Source of the DNA: Candidatus Falkowbacteria bacterium
GTDB lineage: Bacteria; Patescibacteriota; Patescibacteriia; UBA11705; JABHMO01
Direction of reading: 5' to 3'
DNA length: 64,000 bases
NCBI GenBank assembly: GCA_018674305.1
Contig: JABHAL010000001.1
Span: 68,635-132,634 of the forward strand
A program made the position numbers and the translations under genes. The notes below the pieces were generated by a model. That model saw nothing but the letters and a program-made list of their open reading frames with translations, was not told the DNA's origin and searched no databases. Positions within the stretch are counted from its first letter, which is position 1; each line of letters opens with the position of its first letter. Shown here in pieces: positions 40,675 to 46,457 of the stretch.

Positions 40675-41310
40675 TCATGCTTCATTTTCTTCAACTATTT
40701 CGTACCGTTCTGCCACCTGATTTAAATAAAGACACATAGTATCTGCTTTACGTGTTAAAATTATTCTGACTGCGTCTGCAAATTTGCTATAACTAAATCC
40801 CTGAATGATAAAAACACTATCATCAAACTTATAACGCACCTTCATACCTTTTTCAAAAACACGCACTCCAACCTTAATACTGTCCGTCTCCATAGGAAAT
40901 TCTTCGTCTTTGGCATAATCACCTTGGAGTTTAATAATTTGTTCCCTAAACAGTAAAAGTTCTCTCCCTGTATTTACCTTGTGCACACCATTATCAATAT
41001 CTTCAACAACACCCACTTCACCATTACCAGCTGTATCCAAATAGACTACCAGATCGTCCACTTTAACTTCTGGCAAAGGATCTTTGGTTTCAATAAACCT
41101 AACGATCTGTTCCTTCTTGACGATATAATCTCGCAAAACCTGAAGAGCGCCCTTGCCTCCCTCTTCAGCTTTCACCTTAAGCTCAGCAAAACCCAAACCA
41201 CCTGAAATCACTTCCAACTCAGACATCAATCTATCAAAATGCGCTTGCTGAACTTCAGTGAAGTTAGCGTGGAGTGAGCGTTCCGTTAAATTTTGCTCTG
41301 AGCTAATCAT
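40675..41310 (-). CDS. cassette-array paralog 1: conserved ~80-aa N-terminal helical module + unique C-terminal domain
   Basis: N-terminus LTERSLHANFTEVQQAHFDRLMSELEVISGGLGFAELKVKAEEGGKGALQVLRDYIVKKEQIVRFIETK. Confidence 0.6.
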   Translation of the reverse strand: MISSEQNLTERSLHANFTEVQQAHFDRLMSELEVISGGLGFAELKVKAEEGGKGALQVLRDYIVKKEQIVRFIETKDPLPEVKVDDLVVYLDTAGNGEVGVVEDIDNGVHKVNTGRELLLFREQIIKLQGDYAKDEEFPMETDSIKVGVRVFEKGMKVRYKFDDSVFIIQGFSYSKFADAVRIILTRKADTMCLYLNQVAERYEIVEENEA

Positions 41311-41381
41311 AAATGTCGAATATAATAAAAAATAAATTTTTGATAATTAAAACGATTTGATCAATGGACATGAAATATACT

Positions 41382-42149
41382 TTACTCGATCCTTTCAAAA
41401 GCACCCGACATTAAATCCACTCGACCTGTCCCAATAATATCTGGTCCATCCGGCATAACAAATTTCATTGCTACAGCAACATAATTTTCAGGAGCCCCAG
41501 AAGCAACAACAACATCATGCCCTTCCACAAAGCCAATCACCTCCACAGAAGTTGATTTTACATATACATTTTGTGGACCAACTGACTTTACAAAGTCCTG
41601 CTTGTATTTAAATTTATCACCAACACTAATACCTTTATAAGACTGCATATCAAGTGGTGTATATACATTACCAGGCAATTCAGTTGCTGCTATGTATTTA
41701 ACTTTCCCATTTTCTAACTCATCCCAAGTATGAAATCTTGCCAAAGATTTACTATCCAAAAGCTGAGGAACACTCTCACTCTCCCCTAATACATAAATGT
41801 CATCCCCATGTCCAAAAGAAACTACTTTGAAACGCTTTCCATATAATTCCGGATGAGATTCCAAGTCAATACAAATGACTTCATCATTCTCTTTTATTTC
41901 ACCCTTTACTAGCGGTATTTCTTTCTTTTCAATAAACTCAACTATCTGCTCTTTCTTGGCGACATAATCTCGCATTACTTGAAGTGTTTTTTTATCACCC
42001 GCCTCAGCCTTCGCTTTTAGCTCAGCAAAACCCAAACCACCAGAAAGTTGTTCCAACTCAGACATTAATCTATCAAAATGCGATTGCTGAACTTCAGTGA
42101 AGTTAGCTTGGAGTGATTTTTCAGTTAGTTGTTGTTCGGGGTTTAACAT
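41382..42149 (-). CDS. cassette-array paralog 2 (C-terminal domain of the same type as paralog 5)
   Basis: Same N-module; C-terminal VYTPLDMQSY..GDKFKY..PENYVAVAMKFVMPDG. Confidence 0.6.
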   Translation of the reverse strand: MLNPEQQLTEKSLQANFTEVQQSHFDRLMSELEQLSGGLGFAELKAKAEAGDKKTLQVMRDYVAKKEQIVEFIEKKEIPLVKGEIKENDEVICIDLESHPELYGKRFKVVSFGHGDDIYVLGESESVPQLLDSKSLARFHTWDELENGKVKYIAATELPGNVYTPLDMQSYKGISVGDKFKYKQDFVKSVGPQNVYVKSTSVEVIGFVEGHDVVVASGAPENYVAVAMKFVMPDGPDIIGTGRVDLMSGAFERIE

Positions 42150-42163
42150 ATATTTGATGTTAA

Positions 42164-44237: not shown

Positions 44238-45014
44238 CTACGCGATTCTTTCCAAAGCCTTAACCATTTTTGCCACATTACCAGCTTCCACCTCAATTGT
44301 TCCATCCGGCATGGTAAATCTCATTGCCGCAGCTACAAAATTTTCCGGCTCTCCCGCTAGCACAAAAACATTATTTGACCGAACAAAACCAATAATTTCT
44401 ATCAGTTCAGCATCAACAAAACTATGGTTTGCGCTTACTGCTTCTTTGAATTTTTCTGTGTATCTAAATTTATCTCCAATCCTGACATTCATATATGCTT
44501 GCATATCTAATGGTGTATAAACCATTCCCCTAACATCAGTTGAATTTATTAATCTAGCAACGCCTTTATCCAATTCTTTTATGCTATAAAATCTGGCGAT
44601 ATTATTTATTGAAGTTTCGTAACCATGAAAAGTGCTTTGTCCAACAAATTTCGCAATTCCATTTTCGAGTTCAGACACTCCATATTTTTTTCCATAATTT
44701 TCATCTTCAGGATTAATAACCAGCACAAGATCACTAACTTTAATTTCACCCTTTATTGTAGGAAATTTTTCAAAAACTGTTTTTTTTGTCTCGATAAACT
44801 CCACGACCTCCTCTTTCTTCGCAATATAATCACGCATTACCTGAAGAGCCTCTTTGCTACCCGCTTCAGCTTTTTCTTTTAACTCAGAAAAACCTAAACC
44901 ACCCGAAATCACTTCCAACTCAGACATTAATCTATCAAAATACGCTTGCTGAACTTCAGTGAAGTTAGCTTTGAGTGCATTTGATTGTAGTTCTGTTTCA
45001 AATTTCATACTCAT
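44238..45014 (-). CDS. cassette-array paralog 5 (start at MSMKFETE; C-terminal domain of paralog-2 type)
   Basis: Same N-module; VYTPLDMQAY..GDKFRY..PENFVAAAMRFTMPDG; ATGA overlap with paralog 6. Confidence 0.6.
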   Translation of the reverse strand: MSMKFETELQSNALKANFTEVQQAYFDRLMSELEVISGGLGFSELKEKAEAGSKEALQVMRDYIAKKEEVVEFIETKKTVFEKFPTIKGEIKVSDLVLVINPEDENYGKKYGVSELENGIAKFVGQSTFHGYETSINNIARFYSIKELDKGVARLINSTDVRGMVYTPLDMQAYMNVRIGDKFRYTEKFKEAVSANHSFVDAELIEIIGFVRSNNVFVLAGEPENFVAAAMRFTMPDGTIEVEAGNVAKMVKALERIA

Positions 45015-45706
45015 AGGTCGCGGAGTTGTTTTTTTACTACTCCAATTTCCCAAACTATATGTGTCTTATTATTATTATCCCGGAATCTTACAAAAAGAGC
45101 CCCCTCTCTATATAAAAAATTTTCAATTAGCACTCCTTTTGGTAGAATCGTCTTAAAAGTTAAGTCAGTCACCATATTTTGACCAATTTTAATTCCATCC
45201 ACCTCCCTAAAATCAAGGATTTCATATTCAACTGCCCCATTGTCGATCATTTCGCCAGTTAACCGCATGCAATTTTCGCTTTTCGGTATCTTGATGCCAA
45301 CACCGCCACCAATATTGTATCGGACCCTAACAGTTTCTGGTTCTGGAAAGGATTCAACGACACCACCATCATGATAATGATTTTTAAGTTTTCCGGTACG
45401 ATGATCTCTTTCCACTTCTTTAACTACAACTCGGTCACCAATTTTAAGATTTTTTTCTCGGAGAACTTCTGGAACTTCTTTAGTTTCAATAAACTGCACA
45501 ATCTGCTCTTTCTTGGCGACATAATCTCGCATTACTTGAAGAGCCTCTTTGCTGCCCGCTTCAGCTTTCGCTTTCAGTTCAGCAAAACCTAAGCCATCCG
45601 AGATTACTTCCAACTCAGACATTAATCTATCAAAATGCGCTTGCTGAACTTCGGTGAAGTTAGCGTGGAGGGATTTTTCAGTTAGATTTTGTTCTAGAGT
45701 TAACAT
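45011..45706 (-). CDS. cassette-array paralog 6
   Basis: Same N-module; unique C-terminal domain beginning with an SH3-like GDRVVVKEV pattern. Confidence 0.6.
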   Translation of the reverse strand: MLTLEQNLTEKSLHANFTEVQQAHFDRLMSELEVISDGLGFAELKAKAEAGSKEALQVMRDYVAKKEQIVQFIETKEVPEVLREKNLKIGDRVVVKEVERDHRTGKLKNHYHDGGVVESFPEPETVRVRYNIGGGVGIKIPKSENCMRLTGEMIDNGAVEYEILDFREVDGIKIGQNMVTDLTFKTILPKGVLIENFLYREGALFVRFRDNNNKTHIVWEIGVVKKQLRDL

Positions 45707-45764
45707 ACTTTGTTTTTGTTACGTAATATGTGATATGTGTTATGTGCTCCGGGATACGCGATTT

Positions 45765-46457
45765 TCACTTCGTTCTACCTTTCTTCTTATTACCTTTCAA
45801 CTCATATTGCTCATTAAACATTTGTAATGTCATCGATTCCCAAACTCGTTTACCTTTTAGATGCCGATCAACAAATAGTAAAATCTCATATACTCCTACA
45901 ACAAAATGATGAATAACCGCCTGCCCGCTACCTGACGTCTCGTTATATCTTTTGTATAATTCTAATCCACCAAATTCCTCTCGATCCAAAACTCTTACTT
46001 CTTCGCCAAAAAATTGCCTTAAAGAACTATTATTAACATCATCACTATAACGAGAAATCTCATTAACATCAAAGCCAACTAGAAAATTATGCATCCCCGA
46101 ACAACGAACATGCTCGCCTTTCTCATCAACCTCTTCTACCACCCCTGTTTTACCATAAAATTGCTGTCGGTTTTTACAATAAACAATATGATCACCAGGC
46201 ACATATTTGATTTCCGCATTGACAACTTCTTTATTCTCTATAAATTCTACAATCTGTTCCTTCTTGGCGACATAATCCCGCATAACCTGAAGCGCTTCTT
46301 TATCACCTGCCTCAGCCTTCGCTTTAAGCTCAGCAAAACCTAATCCACCAGAAATTTGTTCCAACTCAGACATTAATCTATCAAAATAAATTTGCTGGAC
46401 TTCGGTAAAGTTAGCTTTTAGGGATTTCTCTTGAAATTGTTGCATTTCTCGTGACAT
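45765..46457 (-). CDS. cassette-array paralog 7
   Basis: Same N-module; unique C-terminal domain. Confidence 0.6.
   Translation of the reverse strand: MSREMQQFQEKSLKANFTEVQQIYFDRLMSELEQISGGLGFAELKAKAEAGDKEALQVMRDYVAKKEQIVEFIENKEVVNAEIKYVPGDHIVYCKNRQQFYGKTGVVEEVDEKGEHVRCSGMHNFLVGFDVNEISRYSDDVNNSSLRQFFGEEVRVLDREEFGGLELYKRYNETSGSGQAVIHHFVVGVYEILLFVDRHLKGKRVWESMTLQMFNEQYELKGNKKKGRTK

Follow-up and report, generated by a model that had tools for sequence, protein, structure and literature searches.

The joining of a constant N-terminal module to variable C-terminal domains is a known theme, and the array of seven tandem genes described here follows it with a module that belongs to a previously undescribed family. 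The array is located at positions 40675–46457 of a 64,000-nt stretch of DNA (hereafter the window; contig JABHAL010000001.1, assembly GCA_018674305.1) from an uncultured, ultra-small Candidatus Falkowbacteria bacterium, one of the Candidate Phyla Radiation (CPR) bacteria, which have tiny genomes and a largely uncharted cell biology. Among the described systems, the F-box substrate-receptor families (FBXW, FBXL and FBXO) of the eukaryotic SCF ligases have a short helical module for docking at the N-terminus and WD40, LRR or other binding domains behind it, and consist of many paralogs with one head, expanded in a lineage-specific manner and arranged in tandem. The mycobacterial PE/PPE proteins and the LXG proteins of the type VII secretion system (T7SS) have a conserved helical N-terminal domain (~100 aa), no signal peptide and variable C-termini, together with a massive lineage-restricted expansion and a tandem arrangement, and polymorphic toxin/immunity arrays combine a constant N-terminal part with a variable C-terminal part in tandem, recombinable repeats. 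The EADs of bacterial conflict systems are small, non-enzymatic, all-α modules found in many copies per genome, adjacent copies being the most similar. A homotypic adaptor role has been proposed for EAD1–10, and a defining feature is the fusion of one of the copies with a core component (VMAP, iSTAND/STAND, Ubl or GAP1) (Kaur et al., eLife 2020, PMC7159879).

Apart from the core fusion, similar traits of architecture recur in the proteins encoded by the array and in their relatives, in which the constant module is referred to as the head and the variable C-terminal domain as the tail. By analogy the family can be likened to both F-box and EAD proteins, yet it lacks the defining feature tested for each. 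A Pfam search of the seven proteins gave no F-box match (PF00646 or related) at E ≤ 1, the head is 77 aa long with four helices, and no Skp1/cullin system is known from bacteria of this group; the likeness is one of architecture and logic only. A preliminary description of the array, made from the sequence alone, had called it typical of polymorphic effector or immunity arrays, receptor-binding cassettes and diversified adaptor families. The effector or immunity reading was not borne out, as no toxin domain, trafficking domain, interleaved immunity gene or PADLOC match was found in the array, where every cassette is a whole gene that begins at a start codon of its own, the tails look like binding scaffolds, and there is no room for immunity genes since the intergenic gaps are only -4 to 92 nt. 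The best reading of the data, to which we hold tentatively, is that of a lineage-specific and strongly expanded family of soluble adaptor or receptor proteins with a constant head and a variable tail.

When analysing the array, seven co-directional genes were identified on the minus strand in the order p7 to p1, all opening with a common 77-aa N-terminal head, and both the number of paralogs and their tandem layout agree with the preliminary description. The first, p7 (45765..46457, 230 aa), consists of the head and a KOW-like barrel region, and has a candidate alternative start at its second Met (MQQFQEK), the start that its ortholog has. It is followed by p6 (45011..45706, 231 aa), with a β-rich C-domain, and by p5 (44238..45014), with a C-domain paralogous to that of p2 and a length of 258 aa from the ATG at 45014 (the list of open reading frames (ORFs) gives a TTG start at 45053 and 271 aa). 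Next are p4 (42871..44145, 424 aa), with a ~345-aa probable β-propeller, p3 (42164..42874, 236 aa), with a β-rich C-domain, and p2 (41382..42149, 255 aa), with tandem SH3-like β-barrels, while p1 (40675..41310, 211 aa), with a short barrel region, is the last gene of the array. The p4 stop/p3 start and the p6 stop/p5 start overlap as ATGA, at 42871–42874 (ACTATGATTA) and 45011–45014 (CCTATGAGTA) respectively, and the non-overlapping genes are separated by 14–92 nt. No terminator-like sites and no promoters above background were found inside the array, which together with the short gaps fits the operon-like layout proposed earlier, and the base composition of the array is that of its flanks.

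Homology among the seven genes begins at the ATG and ends a few codons past '…FIETKE'; the array contains seven copies of a 258-nt direct repeat with a spacing of 695–1277 nt, and exactly seven head copies were found in the window. All seven proteins are acidic with single cysteines scattered along them, and none contains a signal peptide, a lipobox, a transmembrane segment or any other hydrophobic segment (maximum Kyte-Doolittle 19-residue mean ≤1.55, N-terminal maximum 0.37), in line with the earlier remark that signal peptides are lacking. Plus-strand ORFs within the modules (e.g. 45371–45592 and 46089–46343) were considered and rejected as antisense shadows, the conservation ending with the module.

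An alignment of the seven heads revealed 45 invariant columns out of 77 and a mean column identity of 85%, with pairwise identities of 74–94% for amino acids and 76–87% for nucleotides. The near-identity noted in the preliminary description stands, although the range given there (85–95% of residues) was slightly too high. The nucleotide blocks quoted in it are the reverse complement of module codons 18–34 and occur exactly seven times in the window against zero expected, confirming conservation at the nucleotide level. An exhaustive scan of 1.84 billion representative proteins with a hidden Markov model of the head gave 53 matches, 47 of them at E ≤ 1e-10, and in all 47 the head occupies residues 1–77; in public databases the relatives are annotated as 'hypothetical protein [Candidatus Falkowbacteria bacterium]'. 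Widening the profile with the divergent heads of L023, P0054 and P0057 gained only three fragments. The head matched no family in Pfam, NCBIfam, PHROG, PADLOC, Rfam or the sequence profiles of the PDB, in agreement with the preliminary description, in which no described family had been recognised in it, and the head family is real, well delimited and previously undescribed. AlphaFold2 (AF2) models the head confidently as a four-helix domain (pLDDT ~90 over residues 20–70) with helices at 4–14, 19–36, 41–49 and 53–75 in the p2 model, and structural searches returned generic folds only, none enzyme-like.

Two candidate identities of the head were rejected. A J-domain or DnaK cofactor, suggested by the adjacent hrcA-grpE-dnaK genes, is not supported by any DnaJ match in Pfam or by an HPD motif in the modules; a genuine dnaJ is present at 30419–31516 and the other arrays do not adjoin dnaK. 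For an anchor of phage receptor-binding proteins, a BFVD search with the p2 model gave TM-scores of at most 0.24, PHROG gave no matches, and a scan of IMG/VR, unreliable as explained below, was negative. The weakest matches of the exhaustive search, P0056 and P0058, are long proteins of actinobacterial appearance in which a helical repeat ('ARADAGDxxAxxxLAxLL'), present many times, aligns with module positions 41–69. Helices 3–4 of the head are thus similar to a single unit of a Sel1/TPR-like repeat, probably through convergence.

To the selection acting on the heads several measures speak. Third codon positions are 54–75% identical among the copies, and comparison of the window paralogs gave a synonymous divergence (dS) of 0.55–1.97 and a nonsynonymous divergence (dN) of 0.07–0.21, corresponding to ω values of 0.08–0.27. 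With dS near saturation and ω low, the head copies are old, and what keeps them similar is purifying selection at the protein level, not recent homogenisation. Between orthologs, ω is 0.05–0.21 for the heads and 0.11–0.44 for the tails, so the tails are constrained yet looser. The preliminary description had regarded the repeats as substrates for recombination and proposed a search for gene conversion. Exact tracts were found, the longest being the 65 nt shared by p4 and p5 (17–41 nt in other pairs), and in p1, p6 and p7 the head resembles paralogs of the same genome more than it does its ortholog. The nearest relative of the heads of p5, L20_261 and L20_377 is their own ortholog; several cassettes thus track their orthologs and conversion is patchy, without the recent homogenisation of the repeats that the dS values speak against. 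No genome-specific residues were seen in the heads. In the p7 ortholog of a sister genome (L016 105–827) the head is strongly diverged (43% amino acid distance over module codons 10–78) while its tail, 48% identical, has diverged no more than other orthologous tails; possibly this head is escaping the common constraint, or the p7 head has been converted back to consensus.

Within the heads one segment behaves differently from the rest. Codons 16–34 (A-N-F-T-E-V-Q-Q-x-x-F-D-R-L-M-S-E-L-E), corresponding to 57 nt on the minus strand at 42773..42829 in p3 and at 41212–41268, 42051–42107, 44050–44106, 44913–44969, 45608–45664 and 46359–46415 in p1, p2, p4, p5, p6 and p7, have a same-codon fraction of 0.91 in the window, 0.80 within L001 and 0.75–0.83 between the closest genomes. 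For codons 35–78 the fraction is 0.51–0.60, and 0.48 is expected from codon usage. Among the fixed codons are rare ones, AAC (19% of Asn), TTC (18% of Phe) and GAG (28% of Glu), and the stretch AAC-TTC-ACN-GAA-GTT is palindromic. Every segment contains a conserved 9-bp hairpin, GCUAACUUC-ACN-GAAGUU(C)AGC; its pairing holds in 91% of cells over 26 sequences, as against 18–45% in slid controls, with the structure read from the same 26 sequences on which it was scored and with only three compensatory cells. No Rfam match was obtained in the region 38.5–49 kb and no stand-alone copy of the segment exists outside the heads in the window. As judged from the sequences, the frozen synonymous sites indicate a putative constraint at the nucleic acid level on codons 16–34, embedded in the head.

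To compare the tails, profile-profile alignments (HHalign) were made with the heads removed and linked through intermediate groups. The C-domains of p2 and p5 are homologous (41% identity, E 9e-43), as the preliminary description had proposed, and connect to two other barrel groups with a probability of 89–95%. The p7 tail connects to one barrel group (84%), the p6 tail to other barrel groups (67–82%), and those of p1 and p3 weakly to the barrel groups, while no such link was found for the p4 tail. The earlier view that the remaining C-termini are unrelated to each other was overstated, p2/p5, p7 and p6 being linked at 82–95% and p4 alone being clearly different. The p2 tail models as SH3/KOW/Tudor-like β-barrels with the five strands of the SH3-like fold. 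When compared with described barrels of this kind (the KOW domains of NusG/Spt5, Tudor, NdhS and PsaE) the tails differ in that the best KOW match of the array, in p7, stays below threshold (13.4 bits, Pfam gathering score 22.3), that no relatives of the p2/p5 tail were found outside the head family, and that there is no NGN domain or ribosomal context.

The tail of p4 is a probable β-propeller, judging from a sub-threshold WDR55 match (~13 bits) and from a distant counterpart, a 429-aa protein of L005 with faint WD40-type matches. True WD40 domains (PF00400, cutoff 27 bits) are found behind the head in the relatives P0045 and P0043 at 81 and 38.5 bits, other propeller-like repeats in L001-549 and L001-445, and further relatives carry all-helical tails or a domain of ~250 aa without assignment. 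No significant match to a toxin or enzyme family was found in the tails with Pfam, NCBIfam or PADLOC, a Tox-REase-2 match being seen in p7 only and at 14.3 bits against a cutoff of 27.6. Sequence comparison and models together suggest that the window tails comprise fewer unrelated domains than first claimed and are binding scaffolds throughout. A distant lineage (L023 623–3332) has a tandem array of diverged heads with LRR-type repeats behind them ('LPDNLxVxGxLxLxxCxxLxxLP'). In one copy the head (887–1150) and the LRR part (1147–1767) are separate ORFs with an ATGA overlap, and a very diverged 84-aa ORF (623–877) consists of the head only.

The window array is one of several. Besides the window proteins, the four metagenome-assembled genomes (MAGs) in which these occur encode P0022, P0067, P0068, P0021, P0034, P0038 and P0074, and a second array of 5–6 members adjoins a penicillin-binding protein (PBP) gene. 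Together with the window array these give at least 17 members at at least five loci in one genome, or about 1–2% of the genes of a roughly 1-Mb-class genome, and the array is not a unique island. Within the species, three assemblies obtained independently agree at 99.99–100% identity over the window locus, and p3 is present as an exact match in 41 collection blocks; in marine samples (ERZ4200961 and relatives) the organism has a coverage of ~34x. Between species the cassettes turn over: in a sister genome (sample ERZ24794647, L016) four syntenic orthologs are found where the window has seven genes, namely p7 (105–827), p6 (837–1535), p5 (1542–2300) and p1 (2369–3004), followed downstream by a DUF11-like gene (625 aa) and then HrcA, GrpE and DnaK. 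The PBP/MurF arrays of two species have some orthologs in common but reordered, and several of their cassettes differ. The cassette variation expected in the preliminary description is therefore present between species and absent from the locus within the species, where the shuffling also proposed in it found no support, the deletion variants being short, low-coverage contigs, one of them chimeric.

These variants (L013 without p4, L014 and L015 without p5) were not considered firm, the contigs being 1.9–2.8 kb long with one at 3x coverage; their junctions fall within a 27-nt tract and within the 65-nt tract that is the longest exact one shared. In L014, positions 1–321 are unrelated DNA in which a GST/glutaredoxin-like N-terminus is fused in frame to the p7 tail, an assembly chimera that undermines the p5-deletion junction in that assembly series (L014, L015). 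The swapped head of P0025 comes from the same series, and L017/P0025 are probably affected likewise. Other irregular copies were noted as well. Two contig sets (L018 13333 and L020 7245) are 99.7% identical over 7.2 kb and part just behind cassette three of the PBP-linked array, where the first set goes on or the second does with 585-469-176-Alr in one and 268-261-MurF-377 in the other; the difference could be due to structural polymorphism, to arrays having been rearranged with each other or to an assembly error. A frameshifted copy (L001 10001–10690, 56 aa + 137 aa) recurs identically in four assemblies, while L020 has an unbroken version of 230 aa, and a 56-aa remnant, P0011 (L009 10001–10171), is an internal in-frame deletion of a 258-aa gene of L005. 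When GTDB representatives, JGI metagenomes and IMG/VR were scanned for the locus by pattern, no match was obtained. These scans are unreliable, since the JGI contigs L019 and L020 and the MAGs GCA_018703365.1 and GCA_018670895.1 carry members, and no claim of absence is drawn from them.

The architecture, the fold classes, the strong purifying selection on the heads and the looser but real one on the tails, the expansion both in tandem and dispersed, and the gain, loss and reordering of cassettes between species are observed. In the adaptor reading, the acidic four-helix head would be a handle for docking or assembly and bind a single partner common to the whole family, which could be a hub protein or the heads of sister paralogs, and the tail would be the protein- or ligand-binding scaffold that chooses the target, with SH3/KOW/Tudor-like barrels or a β-propeller in this array and WD40, LRR or helical domains in its relatives. 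Many specificities would in this way be wired into one machine, following the logic of F-box substrate receptors or of EAD coupling. The proteins would act in the cytoplasm, and unequal recombination at the module repeats may let the arrays gain or lose length. Where one head is combined with so many binding tails, there is probably a central interaction hub, specific to the lineage, with a possible part in host attachment, protein targeting or quality control, and the head, being short, confidently modelled and highly conserved, is a practical bait in a search for it. The family also offers a natural example of paralogous modules kept alike by purifying selection without recent gene conversion, of arrays that gain, lose and reorder cassettes between species, and of synonymous-site freezing that points to an embedded nucleic acid signal, limited by its confinement to a very small clade.

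Several points weigh against a cytoplasmic adaptor family. A signal for export or targeting could have this architecture as well, the cytoplasmic location is deduced solely from the absence of classical signals, and CPR bacteria may use unrecognised export routes. In two of the three array neighbourhoods envelope genes are found (GHL15/FG-GAP, DUF11, PBP and MurF), and across the arrays inspected no conserved neighbouring gene points to a partner. The comparative power is low because the family is tiny (53 representatives), and the comparison loci are mostly metagenome contigs.

The serious rival, to which we give a real though distinctly smaller chance, is an exported, host-directed or surface-displayed family in which the head is a non-classical export, targeting or anchoring domain, read by a secretion or attachment system dedicated to it, and the tails bind host or envelope ligands, after the logic of PE/PPE, T7SS LXG and the MIX-type markers of the type VI secretion system. 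The organism is probably an episymbiont, and a family taking up this share of a reduced genome is typical of host-interaction repertoires. Tails of the LRR, WD40 and SH3-like kinds are often found in effectors and adhesins, the array is probably in one transcription unit with GHL15/FG-GAP surface, small membrane and DUF11 surface proteins, the second array is situated between PBP and MurF, and the turnover of cassettes between species fits an interface under changing selection. Export is opposed by the absence of any signal peptide, lipobox or transmembrane segment from the seven proteins and by the absence of secretion-system genes, ESX/T7SS genes included, from the 64-kb window and from the flanks of the other arrays (~20 kb inspected). 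No Pfam match to PE, PPE, LXG or WXG100 was obtained at E ≤ 1 and no YxxxD/E motif was seen in register. Moreover, tail ω values of 0.25–0.48 are on the whole a sign of purifying and not of diversifying selection, and the locus is invariant within the species.

A bolder combination, which we think rather improbable but not far-fetched, is that the head is the recognition handle of a CPR-specific targeting machine and that the 57-nt segment is at the same time a cis-acting RNA element. If so, the machine could be a hub for proteolysis or chaperoning, or could export proteins to the host cell by a non-classical route. All paralogs, at least 17, would be co-regulated or processed via the hairpin element, and the family, put together with a single 5' cassette used over and over, would constitute a regulon at both the protein and the RNA level.

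An EAD-type system for defence against phages or for other conflicts, with the heads as homotypic adaptors coupling sensor or effector tails to a core component encoded elsewhere, is unlikely. The head agrees with such domains in two respects out of three, being a small, non-enzymatic, all-α module and occurring in many lineage-specific copies of which adjacent ones are often the most similar, and WD40 and LRR tails are classical sensor domains. However, no fusion to a core NTPase, vWA, Ubl or GTPase was found among the 53 representatives (the longest ~585 aa), which consist of the head and a binding domain or are fragments. The tails (SH3-like, propeller, LRR or helical) are not enzymatic effectors and PADLOC gave no match. 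EADs are found in defence islands of bacteria with a multicellular habit, whereas the arrays of this CPR family are set among housekeeping genes with native base composition (the DnaK operon here, PBP/MurF and TyrRS/ArgRS elsewhere).

It is slightly less likely still that the conservation acts mainly on DNA or RNA, through gene conversion or a cis-acting element, and that the proteins are of little functional importance. The frozen codons 16–34 with their hairpin would fit this, as would the 65-nt tract of p4 and p5 and the nearness of the p1, p6 and p7 heads to paralogs of their own genome. Outside these codons synonymous sites vary freely (same-codon fraction 0.60) while the amino acids are fixed (ω 0.08–0.27), the tails too are under purifying selection, and several cassettes follow their orthologs; such an explanation covers one extra layer of constraint and not the family as a whole. 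Close to refuted is the last alternative, that the heads are double-glycine leaders ('ELEVISGG') cleaved by the C39 peptidase of an ABC exporter, for although LMSELEVISGG resembles the LSxxELxxIxGG consensus of class II bacteriocin leaders, the first Gly is D, Q or N in many members (ISDG, ISQG, ISNG), strong conservation runs 40 residues beyond the GG, AF2 places the GG in a turn within the folded helical domain, no NCBIfam leader family matched, no Peptidase_C39 or ABC transporter was found by Pfam among the 20 larger window ORFs scanned or in the flanks, and the cargo would be folded domains of 130–470 aa.

When analysing the neighbourhood of the array, a gene for a small membrane protein (46460..46738, minus strand, 92 aa, maximum 19-residue Kyte-Doolittle mean 2.71) was identified that ends 2 nt upstream of p7 and is probably co-transcribed with the array; next to the arrays of other genomes it is not conserved. 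Upstream of it, a 679-aa GHL15 and FG-GAP protein (46755..48794, minus strand, assigned by Pfam) is probably encoded by the first gene of the transcription unit, ahead of which a promoter-like site is located at 48990–48961 (11/12). On the other side, 59 nt downstream of p1, lies the gene of a 618-aa DUF11-type membrane or surface protein (38759..40615, minus strand), which is syntenic in the sister genome. Between this gene and hrcA, a 260-aa membrane protein with a Cys-rich domain is encoded on the minus strand (37809–38591); it is absent from the syntenic L016 and has its own, perfect σ70-like promoter beyond the DUF11 gene (38648–38620, 12/12).

Farther away in the window, dnaJ (30419–31516, minus strand) stands apart from hrcA-grpE-dnaK, with a GIY-YIG gene and two genes of the plus strand (32381–33631, 182 and 229 aa, without a Pfam match) in between, in a slightly GC-richer stretch (GC 0.43). 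At 54440–61060 on the minus strand a 2206-aa protein packed with MopE-type putative metal-binding motifs (PF11617, 507 bits) is encoded, with a local GC of ~0.51 compared with ~0.35 for the rest of the window.

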